From assembly GCA_035708165.1 (NCBI GenBank), contig DASSSZ010000001.1, positions 230,884-294,883 on the forward strand: a DNA stretch of 64,000 nucleotides. Direction: 5' to 3'. A model generated the notes under the pieces. That model saw only the letters and a program-made list of their open reading frames with translations. It was not told the origin of the DNA and did not search any database. Numbering within the stretch: position 1 is the stretch's first letter; every line of letters begins with the position of its first letter. This stretch comes from Minisyncoccota bacterium. Lineage in GTDB: Bacteria; Patescibacteriota; Minisyncoccia; Phycocordibacterales; UBA2100. Positions 51,679 to 64,000 of this stretch are shown piece after piece. Both the position numbers and the translations under genes were made by a program.

Positions 51679-52686
51679 CTATGCCGTCTTCCCTGCCGCG
51701 ATGACGTGCTTCACGAGCGTGTGCACGTACCCGGCTTCGTTGTCGTACCAGCCGAGGACCTTCACCAGCGTGCCGTCCACGACGCGGGTCATGGCGAGAT
51801 CAGCGATGGAGCCGTACGGCTGCCCGACGACGTCCATCGAGGTGAGCTCGTCTTCCGTCACGGTGAAGACGCCATCCCAGCGCGGATCCGCGGCGGCCTT
51901 CTTCAGGGCGTCGTTCACCTCCTCGACGGAGGTCGGCCTCGAGGCGACGAAGGTCACATCCGCGATCGAGCCGGCCGGCGTCGGGACGCGCAGCGAGATG
52001 CCGTCGAACTTGCCAGCGAGCGAGGTGTGCGCGAGCGTGGTCGCTTTCGCGGCGCCGGTGGAGGTCGGGACGATGTTGAGCGCGGCTGCGCGCCCTTCGC
52101 GCACATCCTTCTTCGACGGCGCATCCACGATCGCCTGGCTCGCCGTATAGCTGTGCACGGTGTTGAGGATGGCGCGCTCGATCCCGATCGCCTCATTGAG
52201 GATGCCGATCAGGGGCGAGACCGCGTTGGTCGTGCAGGAGGCATTGCTGGTGATGGGGCAGGTCACGAACTGGTCCTCGTTCACGCCCATGAGGATAGTG
52301 GCCGCGCCTTCGCCCTTCGCCGGCGCGGAGATGACTACACGCTTCGCGCCCGCGTCGATGTGCCCCTGCGCCTTGGCCGGGTCGGTGAAGACGCCGGTCG
52401 ATTCCACGACGACATCCACGTCGTACTGCCCCCACGGGAGCTTCGCGAGATCTGGCTCATGCACGAATGCGACCTCCTTCCCGTCCACGATAAGCGCATC
52501 GTCCTTCGATTCCACGGAGAACGGCGCGCGACGATAGACGGAGTCATACTTGAGGAGGTATGCCAGCGTCTCTGTCGGCGCGAGATCATTGATGGCGACG
52601 ATCTCGATGTCGGGATTGCCCCATGCGGCGCGGAAGAAGACGCGCCCGATCCTCCCGAACCCATTGATTGCTACTCGTGTTGCCAT
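51679..52686 (-). CDS. gap: glyceraldehyde-3-phosphate dehydrogenase
   Basis: Internal start MATRVAINGFGRIGR; ASCTTNA catalytic Cys motif. Confidence 0.95.
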   Translation of the reverse strand: MATRVAINGFGRIGRVFFRAAWGNPDIEIVAINDLAPTETLAYLLKYDSVYRRAPFSVESKDDALIVDGKEVAFVHEPDLAKLPWGQYDVDVVVESTGVFTDPAKAQGHIDAGAKRVVISAPAKGEGAATILMGVNEDQFVTCPITSNASCTTNAVSPLIGILNEAIGIERAILNTVHSYTASQAIVDAPSKKDVREGRAAALNIVPTSTGAAKATTLAHTSLAGKFDGISLRVPTPAGSIADVTFVASRPTSVEEVNDALKKAAADPRWDGVFTVTEDELTSMDVVGQPYGSIADLAMTRVVDGTLVKVLGWYDNEAGYVHTLVKHVIAAGKTA

Positions 52687-52781
52687 ATCATTTTCCTGAT
52701 TATGCGCACGCCTGCCACCCGGCCGTGCCGCTACTATGCCAGAAGTGTACCACCACCCCGGCTGCCAGATATCCACCATTT

Positions 52782-52856
52782 GCGGAGGTTAAACCTCCGC
52801 AGATCTGTCCTCTATTTTAGATTATTTATGGAGATGTGCGGAGGTTTAACCTCCGC
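52782..52856. repeat. two copies of REP-like palindrome GCGGAGGTT-w-AACCTCCGC (52782..52800, 52838..52856) downstream of RAYT-1
   Basis: Perfect 9-bp arms, seen directly. Confidence 0.85.
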
Positions 52857-52876
52857 AATTTCCGCGAACCCTGCCC

Positions 52877-53533
52877 TCATTCCACCCACTCTGGTTGCTT
52901 GAGCCATGCATCGAGTTCGCGTTCCATCCCGATTCCTCCGGAGAAATAATCCGGGAATGCAGCAGGATTGATGATTGACTGCTGTATGCGCTTGCGCCCG
53001 ACATAATCAGCATAGCTGGAATACTCATAATCACGCAGGCCATGAGCATCCACGATCTCCCGCGGATTGAGGTGGATATATGCGAAGAGGTACTTGAGGT
53101 GAGTATCTTCGGTCACGTGGCGAGCCTTGAATGAGGAACCGAACAGGGCGCCAGTGCGCTCATTCTTCTTATTGAAATACATGGTGTAAGAAGTCATCAG
53201 CCTCTGCATGAACTTGCTCACACCCTTCCCTTCACTGTCATTCTCGCGAACGAGGATATGAAAATGATTCGGCATCAAGCAATATGCGCCAATGTCCACC
53301 AGCGGCCTTCCTCGATCGAATGAGAAAACGGATGAGGAATCCGCGGAGGTTAAACCTCCGCGAGATCGCTTGATCTCGCGGATTTCAGTTCCCTTCTGGA
53401 CCGCATTGAACAGATACATGCCTTCGAGGAATCGCTGATACTCTGCTCCATCCCGATAGACTGGCATCTTCTCGACGCCGCGCGCATAGAGATGGTAGTA
53501 CTCACCCGGAGCGAATACGTAGTTGCGTGCCAT
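52877..53533 (-). CDS. REP-associated tyrosine transposase (RAYT; IS200/IS605 Y1-like HuH)
   Basis: YHLYARGV, AYCLMPNHFHILV (HuH) and YIHLNP (catalytic Tyr). Real start MARNYVF; upstream codons of the track ORF merely translate REP copies. Confidence 0.8.
   Translation of the reverse strand: MARNYVFAPGEYYHLYARGVEKMPVYRDGAEYQRFLEGMYLFNAVQKGTEIREIKRSRGGLTSADSSSVFSFDRGRPLVDIGAYCLMPNHFHILVRENDSEGKGVSKFMQRLMTSYTMYFNKKNERTGALFGSSFKARHVTEDTHLKYLFAYIHLNPREIVDAHGLRDYEYSSYADYVGRKRIQQSIINPAAFPDYFSGGIGMERELDAWLKQPEWVE
53343..53361. repeat. REP-A palindrome copy inside the RAYT-1 coding sequence (encodes RSRGGLTSA)
   Basis: GCGGAGGTTAAACCTCCGC in-frame within RAYT-1. Confidence 0.85.
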
Positions 53534-53554
53534 GACAAAAGCATAGCACAGCTT

Positions 53555-53618
53555 GCGGAGGTTAAACCTCCGGAACTTCGTACAAGGTTCGCAGAGATTG
53601 CGGAGGTTTAACCTCCGC
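53555..53618. repeat. two REP-A copies upstream of RAYT-1 (53555..53573 imperfect; 53600..53618)
   Basis: Seen directly. Confidence 0.8.
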
Positions 53619-53639
53619 AAGAAGAGATGATTAGATTAA

Positions 53640-54239
53640 TTAGATGAACTGCCAGGTCTGCATGATTCCCGCGAGCCACGCATCATCATCCTTATAAGTG
53701 GTCACCTCATAGAGGAAGCCGCCATGGATGAACCACACCTCGCGCGTATCCCCCATTACCGGGTTGTTCCCGAAGAACATCGTCCCCGTCACGCCATCTA
53801 TGACCACGCTCGTGGGCTGCGTGCGCACGCCGGAGGGCTCGTCGAGCAGGAACCGCGCATCGCTTATGGTCGAGCTCGCGTACGACACGATATACACCTG
53901 GAACGCATGCGTATCATCCGCATCTTCGAAGGTGATCGTGTGCCCGCCGCCCGCTTCATCGTACTCGGCGCCGGTGAGCGTATCGGGATAGAGCAGGGAG
54001 AAATGATAGACGGCATTGTGGTACTCGCGTTCGCCCTCCGGCACCGCGCGCGGGTGCGTGAGAGGCGCACGCGGCGCGGCGAATGCTGCAAGCGCGCGCG
54101 CCGGATCAGCGGCAAACGCAGCAGGCGCAGCCGCATGGCGAAGCCATGCGGCTGCGCCGATCACGATCAGAAGCACCGCCGCCGCGCACCCGGCGAGTAT
54201 CAGCTTCCGGTTCCCGAGCTGCCGCATCAATGGAACCAT
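53640..54239 (-). CDS. membrane-anchored hypothetical protein, paralog 1 (199 aa)
   Basis: N-terminal signal anchor. C-terminus REVWFIHGGFLYEVTTYKDDDAWLAGIMQTWQFI paralogous to 55459..56079. Start overlaps the stop of the Gly-rich gene. Confidence 0.55.
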   Translation of the reverse strand: MVPLMRQLGNRKLILAGCAAAVLLIVIGAAAWLRHAAAPAAFAADPARALAAFAAPRAPLTHPRAVPEGEREYHNAVYHFSLLYPDTLTGAEYDEAGGGHTITFEDADDTHAFQVYIVSYASSTISDARFLLDEPSGVRTQPTSVVIDGVTGTMFFGNNPVMGDTREVWFIHGGFLYEVTTYKDDDAWLAGIMQTWQFI

Positions 54240-55393
54240 ATCAATCCATGGAACTTGATCCTGCCGTGCAGACGGATGACGCGGCCGTCCGATGTGCCGC
54301 TGCCGCCCGTACCCTCATCCTCTTCTTCGCCGCCGCTCGTCGGCGCATACGTGATCACGATGAGCCCCTGACCGCCGGTGCCACCCGCGCCATTGTACGT
54401 GCCGGAAGAGCCTGAAGAGCCGCCGCCACCTCCGCCGCCTCCGTAAATGCCACCCGCGCCACCCACTCCATACGTGCTCACGGTCGTCTGGCCGTAATAC
54501 GCATTTCCTCCCCCGCCGCCTCCGCCTGCGCCATGCGTCGCATCCCATTCGGTGCCTGCACCGCCTGCACCGCCCGTTTGCGTGCCGCTCGCGGCATTGT
54601 TCTGGCCGGCGCCGCCGCCGCCCGCGCCATCCGTACCATCCGTCGCTGGAGTAGTATTCGTGCCCGCCGTGCCTCCGTCCACTCCGTTTCGATTATTCCC
54701 GCCGCTCCCGCCTGCGTGGTAAGACGGCGCAACCGGCGAATCACCCACCGTACCGCCATCCGCACCACCTCCGCCTGAGCCACCGACGTAGCCAGTCGCC
54801 GTCTCATTACTCCCGCCGTCCGCACCGTCGGCATTCGGCCCGGCCGCACCGCCTCCGCCTCCGGCGCCATAGTTGCCCGCGCCGCTATTGCCGCCATTGC
54901 CACCGTCGTAAGTAACCGTCCCGATGCTTCCAGATACCGCGCCGCCCGCACCGCCGTTCGTGGACGAGCCGTTGGCGCCGGCCGCCGCCCGCACCGTTGA
55001 AATGCTACCGAACCACGTATCCGCTCCCGAGCCGCCGGCTCCGATGGAATACGAGACGGAACCGGAGAGCCCTTCGAGATCCGATACCTCGGCATATGCG
55101 CCACCGCCTCCTCCGCCGCCGCCTTTCGAGTTTGCGCCCTTCGCTCCGTTGCCGCCTGCGCCGATCACCTCGATTGTATTCGTGTCCGACCAGTCGCTCG
55201 GGACCGTCCAGTTTGTCGCAGCAGTATCGGTGAGATACCCGCGACACTCACCGCCGCCGATATCTGACCCGAAATCGCACGTAGTCGCCTGCGCGATCGG
55301 AACCGCTGATACGAACGGCGCGAATGCGAGCGCCGCCGCCAGAGCCGATGCGCATGCGCGGCGCAGCATCCGTTCCAGCATCCCCTTCCTCAT
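54227..55393 (-). CDS. secreted glycine-rich protein (388 aa)
   Basis: Signal peptide MRKGMLERMLRRACASALAAALAFAPFVSAVPIAQA. N-module TTCDFGSDIGGGEC..WTVPSDW..TNTIEVIGAGGNGA. Long GGxGG tracts. TEWDATHGAGGGGGG..GQGLIVITYAP shared with the 947-aa protein. Confidence 0.6.
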   Translation of the reverse strand: MRKGMLERMLRRACASALAAALAFAPFVSAVPIAQATTCDFGSDIGGGECRGYLTDTAATNWTVPSDWSDTNTIEVIGAGGNGAKGANSKGGGGGGGGAYAEVSDLEGLSGSVSYSIGAGGSGADTWFGSISTVRAAAGANGSSTNGGAGGAVSGSIGTVTYDGGNGGNSGAGNYGAGGGGGAAGPNADGADGGSNETATGYVGGSGGGGADGGTVGDSPVAPSYHAGGSGGNNRNGVDGGTAGTNTTPATDGTDGAGGGGAGQNNAASGTQTGGAGGAGTEWDATHGAGGGGGGGNAYYGQTTVSTYGVGGAGGIYGGGGGGGGSSGSSGTYNGAGGTGGQGLIVITYAPTSGGEEEDEGTGGSGTSDGRVIRLHGRIKFHGLIWFH

Positions 55394-55458
55394 ATCCTGA
55401 TTCTAGCATCGAGCGAACGCGACGCGCTCATACCGATCACTATCGCTCTATCCAGCGG

Positions 55459-56079
55459 CTACTGCGGATCCGCTGCATGATCCGTGCTGCTCGCGAAGCG
55501 GAACGTCTGCATGATGCTCGCGAGCCAGCTGTCAGCGCTGAATGGCGCCGTCACCTCGAAGAGGAATCCATCGTGAATGAACCACACCTCGCGCGTCTGC
55601 TCATGCGTCAGAGGATCCGAGCTCTGGAAGATCGCCGCGTGGATTGCCTGTCCTATCCCGATCACCGCTTCCTGCATGTCGCGGATGTCACCGTTCGGGA
55701 TGTCTTCCGCGAGCCGCGCCTGGGTGATCGTCGCCTGCGCATACGGCGTGATGAAGAGCTGGAAGCGCTCGTCGCTCGTCGAGCTCGCATCGCGCGGCGC
55801 GAAGACGTCTATCTCGGATGCGTTCCCTTCCTTATCGCGCGTCACGCCGAGCGAATCAGGAAAGTCGAGGCTGAAAGCGTAGCGCGGGTGCGTGAAGCGC
55901 GCCATGCCTGGCGCGAGCGCGTTGCCGACCTTCTCCACTTTCGGCACCAGGCCGGCCGCTCCGACAGCAGCAGGCTTCATAGCGTACCGCACGAAGAACC
56001 AGCTGCCCAGTCCAAGCGCAATGAGCATGACAATCACGGCAGGGACCAGCAGAGATATCTTGGAGAATGGCATATGCAA
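55459..56079 (-). CDS. membrane-anchored hypothetical protein, paralog 2 (206 aa)
   Basis: N-terminal TM. C-terminus REVWFIHDGFLFEVTAPFSADSWLASIMQTFRF. Confidence 0.55.
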   Translation of the reverse strand: MHMPFSKISLLVPAVIVMLIALGLGSWFFVRYAMKPAAVGAAGLVPKVEKVGNALAPGMARFTHPRYAFSLDFPDSLGVTRDKEGNASEIDVFAPRDASSTSDERFQLFITPYAQATITQARLAEDIPNGDIRDMQEAVIGIGQAIHAAIFQSSDPLTHEQTREVWFIHDGFLFEVTAPFSADSWLASIMQTFRFASSTDHAADPQ

Positions 56080-56086
56080 GATGATA

Positions 56087-57904
56087 TCAATAGAGTCGCA
56101 CGCCTGTCAGCCGCACGTTGCCGAGCAGCCGGATGATCTTCCGTACCGCCGTTTCCGTCGTCGTCACGCTCGCAGTCGGGCTCCAGTCAGAGATGGTGCC
56201 GCCCGTGTCCTTCGCTTCCGCTCGGAAGGTGTACTCAGTCCCATGAGTAAGCCCGGTGACGGTCGTCCCATCCCATGCGGCATCCGTCTGCCAGACGGCA
56301 GTGGCCGATGGATCGCCGGAGGCGTCCACGTACTTCCCGTCCCAGCTCGAGTCGGTCGGAAGCGTAGTGGAGACCTGGATCGCGTAAGTCACAGAGGATT
56401 CGTTCCCATTCGCATCGTTGCTGAGCGTGACAGATGAATCGGTCTGGTCAGCGAGCGCAGGAGCACCAGGAGCGGTGAGTACGCTAGGGAGAGTACCGGT
56501 CCAGATGTCGCCTTGGTTGCTATCTGCTACCACAATCTTTCCATCTGAAGAAATGGCGATGCCGCCCCATGAACGAGCACCTGCCGCAGTTTGATCGGTC
56601 CAGGTGACCCCACCATCAGAAGATGTATAGATATCACCGCTTAGGGTTGCAAGCTTCATACCGTCTGAGGACATGACGATACTTCCCCACATACGAGCAC
56701 CTGCCGCAGTTTGATCGGTCCAGGTGACCCCACCATCAGAAGATGTATAGATATCACCACCGGAATAACTCGCTCCAAAATAATCTACGGCAGCAAGCTT
56801 CATACCATCCGAGGACATGGCGATGCCGTTCCAATAACGAGCACCTGCCGCAGTTTGATCGGTCCAGGTGACCCCACCATCAGAAGATGTATAGATATCA
56901 CCACCGCCCAAATCTACGGCAGCAAGCTTCATACCATCCGAGGACATGGCGATGCCGTTCCAATAACGAGCACCTGCCGCAGTTTGATCGGTCCAGGTGA
57001 CCCCACCATCAGAAGATGTGAATATGTCACCACCGGCACCACCTCCATTATCAATTGCTGCGAGATGCGTCCCATCTGCCGATAAGGCAATGAACGACCA
57101 GTCGCGCGATCCGGCGGCAGTCCGATCGATCCAGGTGACCCCACCATCAGAAGATGTGAATATGTCACCCCCATTGGTATTATTCCCATCATGCCCAGAC
57201 ACTGTCACAGCAAGATTCATACCATCCGAGGACATGGCGATACCAGCCCAGTAACGAGCACCTGCCGCAGTTTGATCGGTCCAAGTAACGCCGCCATCAG
57301 AAGATGTATAGATATCGCCGCCGGAAAGATTTGCCCCATAACCATCTGTCGCCACAAGATGTACGCCATCAGCACTTGAGGCGACAAACGACCAAGAGCG
57401 CGTTCCAGAGCCAGTCTGATCGGTCCATGTATATGTCTCCGAAGGAGCTGCTGCGGCTGTCGAGAAGCTCAAGATCGAACCGTACCCAGAGTCATTCCCG
57501 CCGCCGCTCTGCTGGGAATAAGCTCTGAAATAATATGTAGTATCGGCGGCGAGACCGCTCAATGCCACCAGGAAGGTTCCCGTCCCGACTGATATCGAGG
57601 GACAGGATGCGGTAGTGGTTGCCGTATCGCCACCGGAGAGCGTCGGCACAGTACCCCATGCGAAGTCACAGGCCAGTAGCGTCAGCCCACCCTGAGGGAG
57701 GGTAACAGAACCATTGAGCGTCGCCGCATCGCTTCCGACCGCGCTCGCAGCCGTCGTAGTGACCGTCGGCGGTAAAGAACCGCCTGGTGCTGCAGCAGCC
57801 GTTTGCGGATACGAGAAGAACAGAGCGGCAGCGAGTATATACACACCCGCAAGGACGGGCAGCAGCAAGACTGATTCAGCTATTTTCGCACGCAGTATCC
57901 TCAC
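56087..57904 (-). CDS. secreted FN3 - BNR/Asp-box beta-propeller repeat - FN3 protein (605 aa)
   Basis: Signal/anchor, FN3 (TTYYFRAYS). Seven or more ~46-aa repeats GGDIYTSSDGGVTWTDQTAAGARYWNGIAMSSDGMKLAAVD (S-x-D-x-G-x-T-W). C-terminal FN3 shared with the 947-aa protein. Confidence 0.7.
   Translation of the reverse strand: MRILRAKIAESVLLLPVLAGVYILAAALFFSYPQTAAAAPGGSLPPTVTTTAASAVGSDAATLNGSVTLPQGGLTLLACDFAWGTVPTLSGGDTATTTASCPSISVGTGTFLVALSGLAADTTYYFRAYSQQSGGGNDSGYGSILSFSTAAAAPSETYTWTDQTGSGTRSWSFVASSADGVHLVATDGYGANLSGGDIYTSSDGGVTWTDQTAAGARYWAGIAMSSDGMNLAVTVSGHDGNNTNGGDIFTSSDGGVTWIDRTAAGSRDWSFIALSADGTHLAAIDNGGGAGGDIFTSSDGGVTWTDQTAAGARYWNGIAMSSDGMKLAAVDLGGGDIYTSSDGGVTWTDQTAAGARYWNGIAMSSDGMKLAAVDYFGASYSGGDIYTSSDGGVTWTDQTAAGARMWGSIVMSSDGMKLATLSGDIYTSSDGGVTWTDQTAAGARSWGGIAISSDGKIVVADSNQGDIWTGTLPSVLTAPGAPALADQTDSSVTLSNDANGNESSVTYAIQVSTTLPTDSSWDGKYVDASGDPSATAVWQTDAAWDGTTVTGLTHGTEYTFRAEAKDTGGTISDWSPTASVTTTETAVRKIIRLLGNVRLTGVRLY
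56494..57322 (-). repeat. near-identical DNA tandem repeats (about 138-nt units) encoding the BNR blades
   Basis: Repeated GCACCTGCCGCAGTTTGATCGGTCCAGGTGACCCCACCATCAGAAGATGT.. blocks visible at about 56560, 56700, 56840, 56950, 57090 and 57250. Confidence 0.7.
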
Positions 57905-58051
57905 ACCCTCATTATATAGCAGCTAATACAACCTGCCCGATTGATTGCAGATCCGAGCGCAGACCGAACAATCAGCTGTGCTCTGCGCACACAGAGTACA
58001 GCGTAATGAGTGGTAACGCGTACTATCGTCCCATTTTCCGCTCTTCACATC

Positions 58052-60877
58052 TTAGAAAAGCGCCATGCCGAAGAGGGTCGTACCGCCGAAGAGGATGACC
58101 GATTTCGCGATGTGCTCCGTCGTCGTCACGCCCCCGCTGCCGCTCCAGTCAGTCGTGATGCCGTCGCCGTTCTCTGCCTGCGATTCGATCGTGTACTGCG
58201 TGCCGCTCTGAAGGCCGGTCATCGTGGTCGCATCCCACGCTGCATCCGTCTGCCAGACAGGCGTCGCCGATGGATCGCCGGACGCATCCACATACATGCC
58301 GTCCCACGCGGAATCCGTAGGCGAAGACGCCGTCACCTTGATCGCGAAGAGCGTGTTGCTCGGATTGCCGTTCGCATCGTTCGCGATGTTCGCAGTGCTC
58401 TCGGTCTGACCGGAGAGCGAGGGCGTGCCGGGAGTATTGGCGAACGTGTACGCTTCCGCGACGCTGCTCGTCGCGGTGTAGTTCGGCGTCGGCGCAGAGT
58501 CGCGCGTCGTGATCGCGTAGCCGTAGCACTTGTTCACGTCGAGCCCGGTATCGGTGTAGGTCGCGCTCGTCTGCCAGCCGGAATCAGCGCCGCCCGTGCC
58601 TGCGTCACTTCCGCAGGCCTTGTAGGTGAAATCATATTCGACGGGCGTGGATGATGCATCGGTTGCTGTGGTTGCGGTCATGGTGATCGCAGAACTTGAA
58701 GTTGCAGCCGGCACGGAATCGAACGTCGCCGGATTCGGCGTGGGTGCAGTGGTGTCGGGAGGCGCCGATTGCGGCGTATAGATGATCACGATGATGCCCT
58801 GGCCGCCGGTACCGCCGGTACCGGCGGCACTGCCAGCCGCGCCAGCACCGCCGCCAGCACCGCCATACGTACCACCAGCGCCGCCATTTCCTGCATTATT
58901 GCCGAATCCCATTCCCGACCCGCCGCCGCCGCCGCCTGCGCCATGTGTGGCATCCCATTCAGTACCCGCGCCGCCTGCGCCGCCATTGCCTGAACTACCA
59001 GACTCCCAGCCATACCCAGAACCGGCGCCGCCACTTCCGTTGCTTCCGTTTCCGCCGGCGCTGCTGCTTCCCGAGGTTGACCCGTCCGATCCGATACCGC
59101 CAGCCGTGCCGGTCGTCCCTGCGCCGCCATTGCCACCCTTCGATGATGATCCGGCAGATCCGGCCGTGGAAGACCCTCCATCCGCTCCGCCGCCGCCGCC
59201 GGCGGTATTGGGCGTAGAGGCATATGGCTTTCCGCCGCCTTTGCCAGCGCCGAACGGGCCCGCGGCCCCGCCACCTCCGCCCCCACCGTATGGCGAGCTG
59301 CCAGACACGGCCGCGCCAGCTCCGCCTGCGTACAGCGTTGTCCCTACCGAATTGCTCGTGCTACCGCCCGCACCAGCAGTCTTCCCTGATGCGTTCGCTC
59401 CGTTCGCTGCTGCAACCGTGCTGCTCGTATCGAACCATGTCGTGCCGGAGCCAACGCCACCCGCACCGATCGAATACGCAACGGAGCTGCCTGGAGTGAG
59501 CGAGAGATTCGCGATTTTTGCGTACGCACCGCCGCCACCGCCTGCGCCAGCGTACGACTCAGCAACACTGTTTGCACCATTCCCTCCTGCACCGATCGCC
59601 TCGATCGTATTGTTCGTGCTATCCCAGTCATCCGGCACGGTCCAGCTCGTGCCTGAGGTGAGGAAGATGATGCACTCGGTTCCGTTATACACGGCGCCAG
59701 CGTCGCAGGTCACCGGTTCATCCTCTTCCTCTTCGTCCCCACCACCGAGCGATGTTTCCGCGCCGACCTCATAGAATGTGCTCGGGCTCGTTTCGGTGTC
59801 GTATGCGGCCGCGAGCCAATCGGCACTGCGCGCTACCGAGGAGATGCGGAATTCATCGATATCTCCCGTGAAATACGCGCTCCCCGATGAGCCGGATGAG
59901 ACGTCCGAACCGATGTTCAGGCCGCTCGTATCGCCTGCGTCGATACTCGAGCCCAAGCCGTTCGTCGTGCCTTTGAGCGTGCCGTCCGTATAACCCTTCA
60001 GCGTCCCTGCGGAGCCGTCGAAGACACCGGCGACCTGATGCCATGCGGAAGTCGAGAGCGTGCCGACGTTCGCGACCTCGTTCGCGCCGTCGATCTTCAC
60101 CAGAGGCCCCTGGTCCCCGGCACCGCTGAAGGAAAGCAGGAAGAGCTGATTGCTCAGCTCCATGGAGCGCTCGCCGCTGTATGAGCTCGATTTCACGAAC
60201 ATCGAGAAGGTCGCGGCGTTCCCTATCGCGGCACGCTGAGCCGTCGTCGTGTTGATATGCGCGTTCGTGCTGCCGGAGAAACTGGTCGCTTCGCCTGCGA
60301 TACCCGAGACGAGCGTCCCGCCGTCCTCCGTAGAGTCAGAGAAAGTGCCCGTCGAATCGACCAGAGTCGAGCCATCCATGTGCCAGACGCCAAGGAACCC
60401 GTTCGACCACACTGCCGGCGCATCCGACTGGTCCGTGGTAATGGAGGAATCGCCGTAGCAGAGATAGAAGGCGGTGTCGGACGTATGCGAGAGAGTCGGC
60501 AGTTTCACCCAGTACGTGACGGCCCCGGTCGAGGCATCATAGCTCTCCGTCTCCCAATCGAGCTTCGTGCTGCAGGAGGAATCGCTGTAGAAGCCGATGT
60601 CATAGCCGCTCGTATTCTGCGCATCGCCACCGTTCGCAGTCGTCGCGAGATAGCTGTACGTGCCGGAGACAAGTACCGGGAAATCGGTAAGATCCGATCC
60701 TACCGTACCGGAGGGGATGGTAATGGAGCGGGTATACGAGAAGCCGTCCGCATTGGCGAGCGCGGGCGAAAGCGCGTATGCGGTGGCGAAGATTGCCAAG
60801 CAAAGCAGCGCGACTCGCGCGGATGCGGTCGCGGGTGTGATGCGTCGTACGTGCGGTTGCGTATCAGGTTTTCTCAT
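58052..60877 (-). CDS. large secreted surface protein: DUF2341-like N-domain, LamG/ConA-like domain, glycine-rich module, FN3-like repeats, C-terminal hydrophobic tail
   Basis: Signal peptide MRKPDTQPHVRRITPATASARVALLCLAIFATAYALSPALANA (internal ATG). DGFSYTRSITIPS..LTDFPVLV..YWVKLP..AFYLCYGD (DUF2341-like). GDIDEFRISSVARSADWL (LamG-like). Gly-rich module with TEWDATHGAGGGGGG..GQGIIVIIYTP. C-terminal FN3-like SAWDGMYVDASGDPSATPVWQTDAAWDATT. Confidence 0.7.
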   Translation of the reverse strand: MRKPDTQPHVRRITPATASARVALLCLAIFATAYALSPALANADGFSYTRSITIPSGTVGSDLTDFPVLVSGTYSYLATTANGGDAQNTSGYDIGFYSDSSCSTKLDWETESYDASTGAVTYWVKLPTLSHTSDTAFYLCYGDSSITTDQSDAPAVWSNGFLGVWHMDGSTLVDSTGTFSDSTEDGGTLVSGIAGEATSFSGSTNAHINTTTAQRAAIGNAATFSMFVKSSSYSGERSMELSNQLFLLSFSGAGDQGPLVKIDGANEVANVGTLSTSAWHQVAGVFDGSAGTLKGYTDGTLKGTTNGLGSSIDAGDTSGLNIGSDVSSGSSGSAYFTGDIDEFRISSVARSADWLAAAYDTETSPSTFYEVGAETSLGGGDEEEEDEPVTCDAGAVYNGTECIIFLTSGTSWTVPDDWDSTNNTIEAIGAGGNGANSVAESYAGAGGGGGAYAKIANLSLTPGSSVAYSIGAGGVGSGTTWFDTSSTVAAANGANASGKTAGAGGSTSNSVGTTLYAGGAGAAVSGSSPYGGGGGGGAAGPFGAGKGGGKPYASTPNTAGGGGGADGGSSTAGSAGSSSKGGNGGAGTTGTAGGIGSDGSTSGSSSAGGNGSNGSGGAGSGYGWESGSSGNGGAGGAGTEWDATHGAGGGGGGSGMGFGNNAGNGGAGGTYGGAGGGAGAAGSAAGTGGTGGQGIIVIIYTPQSAPPDTTAPTPNPATFDSVPAATSSSAITMTATTATDASSTPVEYDFTYKACGSDAGTGGADSGWQTSATYTDTGLDVNKCYGYAITTRDSAPTPNYTATSSVAEAYTFANTPGTPSLSGQTESTANIANDANGNPSNTLFAIKVTASSPTDSAWDGMYVDASGDPSATPVWQTDAAWDATTMTGLQSGTQYTIESQAENGDGITTDWSGSGGVTTTEHIAKSVILFGGTTLFGMALF

Positions 60878-60895
60878 ATCGATATCATTCTTCAA

Positions 60896-61600
60896 TCATT
60901 CTTCCCGCGCGTTAGAGGCTAAACCTCTAACGGGTGCGTCATGCATGTCCCCTTCCTCAAGCCAGTCATCTATATGCGCATCGAGGCTCCGCCGTGTCGA
61001 GAAGTATTCGGGGAACCTTGCCGGGTCAGTAATCACATGCCGCTTGCGATTATATTCGCCGAAGCTCGAGTACGGATATGTCTGCACGTATTCCCGCACC
61101 TTTTTGAAATCGCGAGAGCCGAATTCTTTCCAGTGCGGATCGACGAGTTTCGCCGGATTGAGATGAATATAGGAAAACAGGTACCGTGCATACCGATCAT
61201 CGAGCACATGCCTTGCCTTGAACGTGCCCTGGAAGAGCGCGCCGCTTCGCGCATGCCGCTCATTGAAATACATCGTGTAGGCGGTCTGCAGGCGCTGCAT
61301 GAATTTCGATATTCCATTTTCGACGAGCGGCGTCACATACAGGTGAAAGTGATTCGGCATGAGGCAATAGGCGCCGATCGCCACCAATGGCGCACCTTGT
61401 GTTAGTTTTAGAGGTTTAGCCTCTAACACATAATCGCGACGGATCTCGTGTGTCAGCCGAGGCGCAGCGGCATCATTCAGAACACAGAGGTAAGCCAGGA
61501 ACCGCTGGTATTCATCGGCGTTTGAGAAGATCTCGCGCTTATCCACCCCCCTATTATAGAGGTGGTAGTATTCTCCTTCGCTGAAAATGATACGTCTCAT
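60896..61600 (-). CDS. REP-associated tyrosine transposase paralog 2 (RAYT)
   Basis: YHLYNRGV, AYCLMPNHFHLYV and YIHLNP. Its stop abuts the start region of the 947-aa gene. Confidence 0.8.
   Translation of the reverse strand: MRRIIFSEGEYYHLYNRGVDKREIFSNADEYQRFLAYLCVLNDAAAPRLTHEIRRDYVLEAKPLKLTQGAPLVAIGAYCLMPNHFHLYVTPLVENGISKFMQRLQTAYTMYFNERHARSGALFQGTFKARHVLDDRYARYLFSYIHLNPAKLVDPHWKEFGSRDFKKVREYVQTYPYSSFGEYNRKRHVITDPARFPEYFSTRRSLDAHIDDWLEEGDMHDAPVRGLASNAREE
60911..60931. repeat. REP-B palindrome GTTAGAGG-ctaaa-CCTCTAAC inside the last codons of RAYT-2 (encodes VRGLASNA)
   Basis: Seen directly. Confidence 0.85.
61407..61425. repeat. REP-B palindrome TTAGAGGTTTAGCCTCTAA inside RAYT-2 CDS (encodes LEAKPLK), at the position homologous to the REP-A insertion in RAYT-1
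   Basis: Seen directly; alignment of the two RAYT proteins places both intragenic REPs between EIR(E/R) and PLV(D/A)IGAYCLMPNHFH. Confidence 0.85.
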
Positions 61601-61615
61601 ACTGTATGGAAGATA

Positions 61616-61667
61616 TTTAGAGGCTTAGCCTTATTTAGAGGTATTTTAGAGGTTTAGCCTCTAAAAG
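61616..61667. repeat. cluster of REP-B copies (degenerate half at 61616..61631, TTTAGAGGTA at 61634..61643, full TTTTAGAGGTTTAGCCTCTAAAA at 61645..61667) upstream of RAYT-2; supplies the stop codon of the tail-fibre-like gene
   Basis: Seen directly. The TAA stop of the 61654.. gene lies in the REP loop (GGC-TAA-ACC). Confidence 0.8.
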
Positions 61668-64000
61668 AGGTGGCTGAGGTCGGGGTCGAGGTCGAAGCCG
61701 GAGTTTCTGTCGTGGGCACGGTTGCAGTTGCAGTTGTCGTTGTCGTTGCGGTCGAGCTTGCCGGGTCGAACATATCTTCAGGCGAGGGTGACGAACTGCC
61801 ATCCGGGGTCGAGCTCGCATCCCCTGCCTTCGGCGTCGCGGGCGCCGTGCGTGCGGTATCGCTCTCTGGCGTGCTCGTGGCGTTCCCGCCGATACCACCG
61901 CTCGTCGCGCTCGTCGAAGTCGCGGCGCTGCCCTCCCCTGCCCCCTGCTCATCCTCCTCGGTGCTCGTCGCTGCGGTCGAGCTCGCGTCCCCCACGATCA
62001 CGGTGCGCGTCGCGGTCGTCGTGTTGCCGTCCTGGTCGGTCGCGCTGTAGAGGATCGTGTGCGTGCCCGGCGCCGAGGTGTCGAGCGAGATCAAGCCCGG
62101 CGTCGTGGTCGCGCCTCCGTCAACAGACGCGCTGATGCCGAGATTCATGTTCGTGCCGTCGACGACCGTCTCGCCCACGTCGTTGTACGCCGCACCCACC
62201 GCGATGTGCGCCGGATTCGCGCCGAGGATGGTGATGACCGGCACCGTAGAGCTCGCGGTCTCCGCGGCCGGTGCGGCTGCCGCCTGGCTCGCCAAGACCG
62301 CGGCGAGCTGATCGCCCGTCACGCACACGTCCGTGCCATCGCTCTTCGTCACGCAGAGCTCCTTCGTGTGCACGCGGTTCGCGAAGAAGTCGCCGATGCC
62401 GTTGCCTGCCGACGCGAACCATTGCGCGAGCGCGAGCTTCATATCACCCGAGATCTGCACCATCTGCTGTACTTGCGCATTCAGCTCCTGCAGCGCCTGC
62501 AGCATGAGCCACTGCACATCGCCGTACTTCACTTCGTACATGCTGCTGCTCGCGTCGACCGTCACCAATTCCGGTGCGACCGTGAGTACCTGCTGCGCGA
62601 TCAGGCCGTGATAGGTGGTGGAGGTTGCCGTCTTGTAGGCGAAGGAATTGACCTGCAGCCCTGCGATCTGCGCAAGGGCGGTCGTCGAGCCTTGGTCGAA
62701 GGAGAGCGGCGTGATGTCGGTCTTCAGGCGCTCGTCGGAGGCGCAGGTGCCCAAGGTACCCGAGTTGTAGTAGATGCAGCCCCAGTTCAGGCCGGAGGCG
62801 CCGAGGTTGTAGCTCGACGCCGCACTCGGCGTGATGGAGCCGGCGATTTGAAGCTTCGATGCAGGTGATGTGACACCGATGCCGACGTTGCCGCCCTGCG
62901 ACCCGTTCAGGAGAAGCGAGCCCGAACCCTGTACCGCTACCTGATTCGCTGAGATCTGCAATGCGGATCCCGACGCACCGAAGCTCGCAGCCCACCCCGA
63001 TGATTGTGCCACGTGCAGTGGCGTTATCGGATCGGTCGTCCCGATCCCGACGAAGCCGTTGCTCAAGAGCCGCATGTTCTCGATGAACGAGGTGCCATTG
63101 TACGAATCGAATGCGAGGCCGCGATTCGTGCCGTCATTGATCGCGTTGATGCCGCCCGTCGAATTGGTGACGCCCGGATTGTTCGAGGTCGCACCGGAGA
63201 AGCGCAAGAGCGGCGTGGTGCGCTCGACCGAGAGATCGGTGTTATCGACGATCACTGCTGCAGGCTTCGTGTCGTCCGCGCTATTGAGCATCGTGTAATC
63301 GGTATCGCCCGAGGGGTTCAATGCAGGGCCCGTCATGATGCCTGCGCCGAAGCTGACCCGGTTGCTCCCGCCGATCGAGACCGCGGAATTGGTCACGGAG
63401 AAGATCGACGTGCCGTATTGGTCATAGACGCCGAGCAAGGTGCCGCCTGCACCGCCATTCGCTTGCGAGATGACGAGACCATTGCCTTGGTCGTTGCCGC
63501 CGATGCGCGCCTGCGCGGTCTCCGGTTTGTTGCCCGTCGTCCAGTTGTATGCCTGATCGCTACTTTCGATTGTGGTCGTCCCGGCGACGGTGAGAAGTGA
63601 GGAAGGTGTGGAGGTTCCGATGCCGACGTTGCCATTCGTCAGCATCTCAAGGATGGTGCCGACAGAGTTATCTATGCGCAGCGCTTCATGATAGTCATTG
63701 CTGTTAAGGAAACCGTAGAGACCGTTGCCGGATGAGTTGTTCTGATCGAAGCGCATCGCGTAGCCACTTGAAGCATTATTGCTGCTCACGTAGAGCGTCG
63801 CGCCAGTCGGGGCGGTGCCGATGCCGACGTTACCGGTCGATGCGAGGTAGAGCGTGCTGTTCGGCGTATTCGGCTCCAAGTAGAACGGATTCTTATCATG
63901 CGTCGCGTCGTAAAAGGTGAGGCCACCCGAGGTATCGTTCGAGAACGACCATGCTTGCGTATTATTACCATTCACCAGCTGGAAATTCGCCGATTGGCTG
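61654..64000 (-). CDS. tail-fibre-like surface protein with Peptidase_S74-like intramolecular chaperone domain, Ig-like domain and S/T/A-rich tail (N-terminus beyond window)
   Basis: Repeated NVGIGT.P...L.VAG beta-helix motifs. SDERLKTDITPL (S74 SDxRLK autoproteolysis motif), then coiled-coil VKYGDVQWLMLQALQELNAQVQQMVQ. Ig-like VITILGANPAHIAVGAAYNDVGETVVDGT..TRTVIV, then a low-complexity tail. The frame stays open to the window edge. Confidence 0.7.
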   Translation of the reverse strand, partial: SQSANFQLVNGNNTQAWSFSNDTSGGLTFYDATHDKNPFYLEPNTPNSTLYLASTGNVGIGTAPTGATLYVSSNNASSGYAMRFDQNNSSGNGLYGFLNSNDYHEALRIDNSVGTILEMLTNGNVGIGTSTPSSLLTVAGTTTIESSDQAYNWTTGNKPETAQARIGGNDQGNGLVISQANGGAGGTLLGVYDQYGTSIFSVTNSAVSIGGSNRVSFGAGIMTGPALNPSGDTDYTMLNSADDTKPAAVIVDNTDLSVERTTPLLRFSGATSNNPGVTNSTGGINAINDGTNRGLAFDSYNGTSFIENMRLLSNGFVGIGTTDPITPLHVAQSSGWAASFGASGSALQISANQVAVQGSGSLLLNGSQGGNVGIGVTSPASKLQIAGSITPSAASSYNLGASGLNWGCIYYNSGTLGTCASDERLKTDITPLSFDQGSTTALAQIAGLQVNSFAYKTATSTTYHGLIAQQVLTVAPELVTVDASSSMYEVKYGDVQWLMLQALQELNAQVQQMVQISGDMKLALAQWFASAGNGIGDFFANRVHTKELCVTKSDGTDVCVTGDQLAAVLASQAAAAPAAETASSTVPVITILGANPAHIAVGAAYNDVGETVVDGTNMNLGISASVDGGATTTPGLISLDTSAPGTHTILYSATDQDGNTTTATRTVIVGDASSTAATSTEEDEQGAGEGSAATSTSATSGGIGGNATSTPESDTARTAPATPKAGDASSTPDGSSSPSPEDMFDPASSTATTTTTATATVPTTETPASTSTPTSATSFRG

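Follow-up and report, generated by a model that had tools for sequence, protein, structure and literature searches.

Two genes for Y1 HUH proteins, designated RAYT-1 and RAYT-2 for their likeness to the REP-associated tyrosine transposases (REP, repetitive extragenic palindrome), lie 8 kb apart in a 64,000-nt stretch of contig DASSSZ010000001.1 from a Minisyncoccota bacterium (the window). Each was accompanied by its own family of short hairpins, REP-A at RAYT-1 and REP-B at RAYT-2, as an earlier inspection of the letters (the sequence-only reading) had proposed. Copies of the hairpin were present upstream of the gene, at or beyond its 3' end and, in frame, within its coding sequence. We favor, with some reserve, the interpretation that each gene and its hairpins form a REPtron-like unit, in which the Y1 enzyme acts mainly in cis, hairpin copies are written and homogenized at the gene, and the stop-free, in-frame ones survive.

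Results

RAYT-2 encodes a protein of the RAYT/TnpA-Y1 fold

The RAYT-2 protein matched the Pfam Y1_Tnp domain (E=1.2e-7; 32.4 bits, against a cut-off of 23). Its HUH motif was NHFH at residues 83-86, on a strand placed by the structural model at E84-91, and its catalytic tyrosine lay in YIHLNP at residues 144-149, a motif of the Y-x-x-x-N-P type. Both motifs were invariant across the family alignment A1 (36 sequences), including residues N83, H84, H86 and Y144.

The AlphaFold (AF2) model of RAYT-2 had a mean predicted local distance difference test score (pLDDT) of 80.3 and a predicted TM score (pTM) of 0.81. In a Foldseek search, its best fold match in the PDB was 4ER8 (E=4.7e-7, TM 0.67 on target), a structure of the E. 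coli RAYT in complex with a REP hairpin. The next matches were the TnpA proteins of IS608 and ISDra2 (2A6M, 2XM3, 2VJV). A search of PDB sequences with the family profile returned no match, and the fold search alone succeeded.

RAYT-2 and RAYT-1 are Y1 HUH proteins of the RAYT/TnpA-Y1 fold. Against the canonical RAYT equivalog (NCBIfam NF047646, REP_Tyr_transpos), they scored 39.6 and 42 bits, respectively, and both failed the cut-off of 80. The relatives of the RAYT-2 protein numbered 6971 at E<=1e-5, and those with a named source were Patescibacteria, the Candidate Phyla Radiation (CPR). The two window proteins are diverged members of a very large class-2 Y1 HUH clade (RAYT/TIRYT-like).

The ATG at 61600 was taken as the start of RAYT-2, because residues 1-18 are conserved in alignment A1. 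The public NCBI protein (P0001, 216 aa) begins at GTG codon 19 (window 61547-61600). Residues 1-18 (MRRIIFSEGEYYHLYNRG) form the first beta strand and are kept family-wide, so that this annotation is N-terminally truncated.

Both RAYT genes had a GC content of 0.52 and a third-position GC content (GC3) of 0.60, compared with a GC content of 0.64 for the window and GC3 values of 0.71-0.84 for the neighboring genes. This atypical composition may reflect either a foreign origin or a weak codon bias.

Three REP-B hairpins lie around and within RAYT-2

Perfect copies of the palindrome TTAGAGG-YTWAR-CCTCTAA were found at 60912-60930, 61408-61426 and 61646-61664. Against these three matches in 64 kb, 0.03 were expected, and none of 100 shuffled sequences contained three or more. 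The proposed tie between REP-B and RAYT-2 was borne out.

The copy at 61408 encodes residues 59-65 as L-E-A-K-P-L-K, as had been claimed, and is directly preceded by V (minus-strand reading V-L-E-A-K-P-L-K). It sits in the loop that links helix alpha-A to the HUH strand. The 3' copy lies in the final codons of the gene. It had been said to supply the last residues of the protein, V-R-G-L-A-S-N-A; the reading itself was correct, but R-E-E and the stop codon come after it.

In the RAYT-2 model, pLDDT fell below 50 only at residues 60-65, in the loop, and 218-234, the C-terminal tail. These are the two REP-B-encoded stretches. Structure prediction, which had been advised as a check on whether such peptides form surface loops, thus placed them in a loop and a tail, both predicted to be disordered.

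The upstream copy (61646) lies 46 nt before the RAYT-2 ATG, with its center 55 nt before it. A cluster of copies had been described here. One of them was perfect, and the other two were degenerate or partial (61617-61641) and went unmatched in a scan that allowed up to two mismatches. The claim that the TAA stop codon of the adjoining gene lies in a REP loop was upheld: positions 61654-61656 fall within the loop of the 61646 copy. The final residues of that gene, F-R-G, are encoded by an arm of the same hairpin.

When folded as single-stranded DNA, the REP-B copies had predicted energies of -6.2 (internal; z = -6.8), -8.9 (3') and -7.1 kcal/mol (upstream). Over both families, the energies lay between -6 and -12 kcal/mol and the z-scores between -5 and -7.

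REP-A hairpins at RAYT-1

The REP-A palindrome, GCGGAGG-TTWAA-CCTCCGC, occurred at 52782, 52838, 53343, 53555 (with one mismatch) and 53600. The copies outside the gene formed one inverted pair on each side, 45 and 56 nt apart, and these were looked at as a REPIN-type arrangement.

The internal copies of the two genes had been placed at homologous positions. They do occupy the same loop, but not the same residue: the conserved IGAY glycine follows at 14.0 aa from one center and at 20.7 aa from the other. The two copies are also read in different phases, and the orientation of the hairpin loop relative to the gene is opposite.

A second palindrome was observed at window 53357-53382. It has an 11-bp stem, TCCGCGAGATC-GCTT-GATCTCGCGGA, and overlaps an arm of the internal REP-A copy. 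The protein loop that contains it is 38 aa long, compared with the usual 27-33. This palindrome may be the remnant of an older copy.

The longest open reading frame (ORF) of RAYT-1 opens at TTG 53620 and crosses two REP-A copies as RRLNLR and RRFNLR (window 53534-53620). The homologs show that ATG 53533 is the true start.

Flanking hairpins are a shared feature of the family

The architecture was compared at 86 loci, namely 80 from metagenomes, four from species-representative genomes and the two window genes. The metagenome loci were the best matches to two peptide patterns and sample one clade. Many of the contigs were short, and most of the counts below are of perfect palindromes only.

At 57 of the 86 loci, one locus-specific perfect palindrome was present both upstream and 3' of the gene. 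Relative to the ATG, the median center of the upstream palindrome was at -37 nt (interquartile range -42 to -29); relative to the stop codon, that of the 3' palindrome was at +11 nt (-8 to +19). The stop codon fell within the 3' palindrome at 22 of these 57 loci. Single copies prevailed both upstream (46/57) and 3' (49/57). The two flanking copies were inverted at 29 loci, direct at 18 and of unlike loops at 10.

The top of the hairpin was invariant. In the consensus AGG-N5-CCT, the A was found in 56 of 56 palindromes and each G in 54 of 56, and both window palindromes conformed. The lower stem, on the other hand, varied and differed in nearly each locus. No foot motif (GT[AG]G) or guide was detected, as no base was conserved within 8 nt on either side of the flanking palindromes at the 57 loci.

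In a scan for AGG-N5-CCT, the density per kb was 4.8 and 3.8 beside the ends of the gene, 0.37 within the genes and 0.089 elsewhere. In the 64-kb window, every copy of REP-A and REP-B lay within 200 nt of one of the two genes. In three other CPR metagenome-assembled genomes (MAGs), an exact REP-B-type 19-mer had only two to five copies per MAG, mostly at the RAYT gene. The term 'REP family' therefore holds insofar as each gene has its own palindromes. It does not hold in the canonical sense, since these are local, low in copy number and footless, and the proteins score below the RAYT equivalog cut-off.

No near-identical multi-copy RAYT genes were seen among the analyzed loci, and no second ORF was present inside the hairpin-gene-hairpin units examined. 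Tandem RAYT paralogs were observed within 1-2 kb of each other (L072:3387-4081; L063:3-626 with L036). Each of these had its own palindrome, in parallel with the more widely spaced pair in the window.

A few solitary hairpins adjoined or sat inside housekeeping genes, without a RAYT gene. At L021:1097-1115, a REP-B-type 19-mer was in frame (L-E-V-K-P-L-K) within a cobalamin adenosyltransferase gene. The Pfam match of this protein covered 171 profile positions with 170 residues, so that the palindrome added no length. In one CPR MAG (L002:3051-3105, L017:3261-3315), the repeat unit extended beyond the hairpin by about 35 nt on the 3' side; a first copy preceded a RAYT gene, and a second stood alone between two LysM/CHAP genes. 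The reading frame of one homolog, P0019 (400 aa), crossed the 3' hairpin (SRLNLE..RGFISN) and ran on into the following gene, so that the protein ended in fusion with a signal peptidase I domain (PF10502).

The internal copy recurs at one site and in two reading phases

An in-frame internal copy of the locus's own palindrome was found at 19 of the 57 loci. In 17 of these, it lay in the loop that joins helix alpha-A to the HUH strand; in the other two, it came just past that strand. Chance does not explain the internal copies, given that the layout recurs at 19 loci and that 17 of these share the loop. Their density was 0.53 per kb, compared with 0.05 per kb far from the gene.

Most internal copies were 14.7 or 17.7 residues ahead of the IGAY glycine. 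Fourteen were read in the phase xxA-GGN-NNN-NCC-Txx and five in xAG-GNN-NNN-CCT, the third phase being unused. Twelve were direct and six inverted with respect to the flanking copies. In a neighbor-joining tree, the carriers were scattered among 12 clades or more.

REP-type peptides (xAKP or xGLAS) were common in the 114 proteins closest to RAYT-2: the loop contained one in 49 of them and the C-terminal tail in 22, and a few had two such peptides in the loop. In P0022, P0030 and P0052, peptides of opposite orientation were adjacent in the pre-HUH loop (e.g. GGLAS..LEAKP). Judged from these peptides, the pair appears to be an inverted hairpin doublet within the coding sequence.

In the RAYT-2 clade, both orientations of the hairpin occurred at nearly one site, each in a phase that dodges the stop codon of the loop. 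Because the loop carries TAA or TAG, a given orientation fits some phases only. The presence of both orientations argues for at least two separate writing events.

Close orthologs differed in whether they carried the internal copy (L048 and L065; P0016 and P0007). Copy-less loops were searched for decayed remnants of the locus's own hairpin, and none were found (6.46 versus 6.66 of 12, p=0.96). At the protein level, the RAYT-2 clade contained a decay series, WKAEPS, LQDKPQ and AFKPK, and a description of the internal copy as 'all or nothing' is therefore too strong. A model of simple insertion was rejected for most loci, in view of the equal length of sister loops with and without the copy.

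The copies at a locus evolve in concert

The upstream copy shared an arm of 7.8 nt with its own 3' copy, compared with 3.2 nt with other loci. Between the internal copy and the flanking copies of its locus, 5-10 nt of arm were common. Other loci matched the internal copy equally well in 72 of 1045 comparisons, mostly through the commonest arm, CAAGG.

The RAYT-2 clade gave a closer view. The arm TTAGAGG was common to the window gene, L104 and L106. At L113, GTGGAAGG was found at all three positions, and the internal copy read Q-W-K-A-K-P-S. At L112, GAGGGAGG was found at both flanking positions, and the internal site had decayed to L-Q-D-K-P-Q.

When the window gene, L104 and L106 were compared pairwise, identity at third codon positions was 36-40% elsewhere, whereas the seven hairpin codons were identical in 21 of 21 nt in all three comparisons. 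Between the window gene and L113, only six of the 21 nt of the hairpin codons matched. Thus, the internal copy was either kept to the nucleotide or replaced wholesale, jointly with the flanking copies.

The upstream copy of L104 and L106 was degenerate, with the internal and 3' copies perfect. It was a non-palindromic hybrid (L104:1925-1955, L106:200-231), in which 18 nt, CAAGGCTAAACCTCTAAA, were identical in the two loci despite saturated synonymous divergence.

Interpretation of the internal hairpin

In the mechanism that we propose, a compact REPtron-like unit of about 750 bp would be built around the RAYT-type gene. The enzyme would read the conserved top of the hairpin on single-stranded DNA, and would cut and rejoin beside it, chiefly on DNA adjoining its own gene. 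Hairpin copies would thereby be deposited, and rewritten from each other, at and around the gene. The data establish the RAYT fold, the layout of the hairpins with their invariant top, the bias of the copies in site and phase, the disorder of the loop and the concerted change of the copies; we infer that the RAYT protein itself binds and cuts the hairpins, acts in cis and homogenizes the copies.

The copies surviving inside the gene would be those that keep the frame, avoid a TAA or TAG from the loop and lie in the disordered loop or the C-terminal tail. Such a filter would account for the recurrent site and the restricted reading phases. The stop codon of the neighboring gene in a hairpin loop, and the extra C-terminal residues of RAYT-2, would follow from the tight packing of genes around the hairpins.

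Several findings weigh against this cis-acting REPtron. The loop was 32.0 aa long with an internal copy and 28.9 aa without, and it was of equal length in sister pairs with and without the copy (L078/L061; L029 and L082 versus L084 and L088). Loci with an internal copy were no more likely than others to have additional flanking or distal copies (odds ratio 1.25, p=0.78), contrary to a pure prediction of more by-products from more activity. Orthologs were in conserved synteny, and ongoing mobility was not directly seen. The identity of the internal copy, in 21 of 21 nt and seven of seven third positions at saturated synonymous divergence, would also be given by selection. The perfect internal and 3' copies at L104 and L106, beside a degenerate upstream copy, hint that the internal copy can matter.

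These last two observations favor the main alternative, in which the internal hairpin is a selected third site that couples the gene to its substrate. It might be an autoregulatory site on its own DNA or mRNA, or a 5' synaptic partner of the 3' copy. The internal hairpin also changes in step with the flanking copies, is constant in place and phase over 12 or more clades, and is reflected in a REP-type loop peptide in roughly 43% of the 114 homologs closest to RAYT-2. On the other hand, two thirds of the loci with flanking hairpins lack it, as do L065 and L112, which are closely orthologous to carriers, and it decays at the protein level. The copy-less loops retain no trace of their own hairpin, the orientation relative to the flanking copies varies, and the window hairpins lack promoter-like or terminator-like signals. 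On balance, we consider a selected third site rather unlikely, though worth keeping in mind.

More doubtful still, in our view, is the broader proposition of a previously undescribed REPtron class, CPR-wide and defined by the AGG-N5-CCT top, private lower stems and three-site concerted evolution, in which selection keeps the in-frame hairpin as a third working site. If it were true, a substrate copy inside the coding sequence would couple the enzyme to its substrate, for example by feedback on its own gene or through an internal and 3' working pair, and gene and hairpin would co-evolve as a single unit.

The sequence-only reading had argued that the arrangement was targeted and functional rather than accidental. 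Of this, the non-accidental part stands. The functional part was not supported: only about a third of the loci carry the copy, close orthologs differ in it, its peptide lies where disorder is predicted, and in-frame REPs in tnpA-REP genes are already known as tolerated insertions (PMC6006769).

The hairpin-gene-hairpin unit might instead be an autonomous insertion sequence (IS) of the IS200 type, with the palindromes as its left and right ends and the internal copy incidental. The fixed subterminal distances of the hairpins from the gene ends would fit this, as would the fold common to the TnpA proteins of IS608 and ISDra2, the low GC and GC3 of the RAYT genes, and the different neighborhood of the RAYT-2-like gene at L113. 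The orthologs, however, were syntenic (L035/L057, L048/L065, L054/L058), and instead of near-identical multi-copy genes, the paralogs of one genome were 45% identical with different hairpins. The tyrosine motif was Y-x-x-x-N-P and not the Y-x-x-x-Q of IS200 (PMC6006769). The upstream and 3' copies were of variable orientation, and solitary hairpins exist without a gene. An autonomous IS is thus improbable.

A chance coincidence or an assembly artifact, for which only the small size of the palindromes speaks, is refuted by the shuffled sequences (0/100 with three REP-B matches), by the architecture shared at 57 of 86 loci in dozens of independent assemblies, and by the locus-specific matching of arms.

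Neighboring genes and local context

The positions of the features in the window are given in Table 1.

Table 1. Genes and hairpin copies around RAYT-1 and RAYT-2, in window positions
Feature	Position	Strand	Remarks
RAYT-1 coding sequence	52877..53533	minus	218 aa; 45% identical to RAYT-2
Downstream REP-A pair	52782-52800 and 52838-52856		inverted orientation; between RAYT-1 and the GAPDH gene
Internal REP-A copy	53343..53361		GCGGAGGTTAAACCTCCGC; reads R-G-G-L-T-S-A; hairpin -11.6 kcal/mol; same loop as in RAYT-2
Upstream REP-A pair	53555-53573 (one mismatch) and 53600-53618		inverted orientation
Downstream neighbor of RAYT-2	58052..60877	minus	DUF2341 and LamG; likely ATG 60877, 18 nt past the RAYT-2 stop
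RAYT-2 coding sequence	60896..61600	minus	234 aa; from the program-made ORF list
3' REP-B copy	60910..60932		CGTTAGAGGCTAAACCTCTAACG; within the final RAYT-2 codons; reads V-R-G-L-A-S-N-A, then R-E-E-stop
Internal REP-B copy	61408..61426		TTAGAGGTTTAGCCTCTAA on the plus strand; minus-strand reading L-E-A-K-P-L-K, residues 59-65
Degenerate REP-B copy and partial TTAGAGG	61617-61634 and 61635-61641		TTAGAGGCTTAGCCTTAT (degenerate copy); between the upstream copy and the ATG; read from the sequence
Upstream REP-B copy	61644..61666		TTTTAGAGGTTTAGCCTCTAAAA; overlaps the end of the neighboring gene
TAA stop of the upstream surface-protein gene	61654..61656	minus	in the loop of the upstream REP-B copy
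Upstream neighbor of RAYT-2	61654..63975	minus	at least 773 aa; Peptidase_S74 and bacterial Ig-like domains; surface protein

The upstream neighbor of RAYT-2 had been called tail-fibre-like. The Peptidase_S74 and Ig-like domains were the sole basis for this name, phage context was absent around the gene, and it is better described as a chromosomal surface-protein gene.

The 8 kb between the two RAYT genes had been described as an accessory segment bracketed by two RAYT/REP systems. This description was not sustained. The stretch contained surface-protein genes (LamG, BNR/fn3, glycine-rich) and was bordered by genes of core metabolism, namely those for GAPDH, RpiB and transketolase. Surface-protein genes also lay around it, and such surroundings are not those of a mobile island.

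In a relative with a gene 66% identical to RAYT-2 (L113:1910-9012), the order was LamG, RAYT, GAPDH, RpiB, S74 protein. A single RAYT gene thus stood between LamG and GAPDH, where the window has RAYT-1, and the S74 gene was on the other side. Surface-protein genes have been rearranged around these RAYT genes, and L113 gave no sign of a bracketed mobile segment.

Glycine-rich GGGGGAxG repeats were observed in two neighboring predicted surface proteins (54227-55393 and the region of 58782-59774).

Known RNA families gave no match at E<=1 in 52000-64000. Consensus scans for promoters and terminators revealed no gene-strand signal at the window hairpins, and the counts were near the shuffle expectation; that an upstream hairpin overlaps a -35 box is speculation. 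A plasmid search returned only distant matches annotated as 'transposase' (25-42% identity).

Discussion

The genomes of CPR bacteria are tiny and streamlined, and repeats in them are rare. An enzyme gene, its hairpin and an in-gene copy of that hairpin here make up a compact unit that evolves in concert. The family provides thousands of pairs of gene and hairpin with an invariant top and a variable lower stem, a natural data set on how Y1 proteins read hairpins and how hairpins are homogenized.

There are also consequences for annotation. The hairpins yield spurious N-terminal extensions, as in the RAYT-1 ORF from TTG 53620. They add C-terminal read-through tails, can fuse genes and give neighboring genes their stop codons.

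Comparison with known systems

In-frame REPs within tnpA-REP genes have been described in subclass 2.4, where they were read as tolerated peripheral insertions (Quentin et al. 2018, PMC6006769). Such copies, previously reported as unique to that subclass, recur in the systems described here. As here, subclass 2.4 (Bertels group 4) has a RAYT-type gene with its own flanking REPs and in-frame copies in a peripheral variable region.

The two differ in several respects. Long REPs, of the canonical or the 'double-foot' type and bearing a GT[AG]G foot, characterize subclass 2.4, whereas the hairpins here are short and footless, with the AGG-N5-CCT top. The motifs of the subclass are NH[IFV]H, WQ and YIxNNP, compared with NHFH, FQ and YIHLNP, and its hosts are Cyanobacteria and Bacteroidetes rather than CPR. 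Its insertions lie between HuH and Y; here, 17 of 19 were before the HUH strand and two after it. Our observations extend the known in-gene REPs to a different subclass, site and phylum, and to a non-canonical hairpin. No paper joining RAYT or REPtron with CPR was found among open-access papers and bioRxiv.

Of the motif patterns in the literature on TIRYT/TnpA-Y1 subclass 2.1, the second consists of NH[YF]H, FQ, Y[IV]HLNP and a C-terminal SS in proteins of about 220-240 aa, the length given being about 238 aa. With NHFH, LFQG, YIHLNP and YSS at 216-234 aa, the present proteins matched subclass 2.1, by motif comparison only (PMC6006769 Table 1). Like the TIRtrons (Di Nocera et al. 2013, PMC3733652; Quentin et al. 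2018), the genes here have private flanking repeats with few or no copies in the rest of the genome. As in subclass 2.1, several diverged paralogs may be present in one genome, each with its own repeats.

Subclass 2.1 has been reported without REP-like hairpins, and its terminal inverted repeats carry a GGGGWSAS motif (PMC3733652; PMC6006769). No GGGGWSAS was seen in the palindromes of the 57 loci. The flanking elements here are instead perfect palindromes with the AGG-N5-CCT top, and are present also in the gene. Subclass 2.1 has a C-terminal helix-turn-helix domain (HTH); none turned up in the Pfam scan of the window proteins, although no test aimed at an HTH was made.

The unit resembles an IS200/IS605 element (IS608, ISDra2) in the fold of its protein and in having hairpins at both ends of a small gene unit. 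Those elements are mobile and multi-copy, with Y-x-x-x-Q, strand-specific ends and often tnpB, and none of these features was seen here.

The canonical REPtron, exemplified by the E. coli RAYT (yafM, subclass 2.2, 4ER8), likewise has an HUH/Y1 enzyme whose gene is flanked by its own hairpin family. A canonical REP has an imperfect stem with a GTAG foot and is dispersed in hundreds of copies, whereas the hairpins here are footless and number a handful, nearly all at the gene. The motif YIHLNP is of the Y-x-x-x-N-P form of the class-2 TnpA-REP-like proteins (compared with PMC6006769 Table 1), and a hairpin family of its own on both sides, the mark of a REPtron, was found at both window genes and at 57 of the 86 loci.

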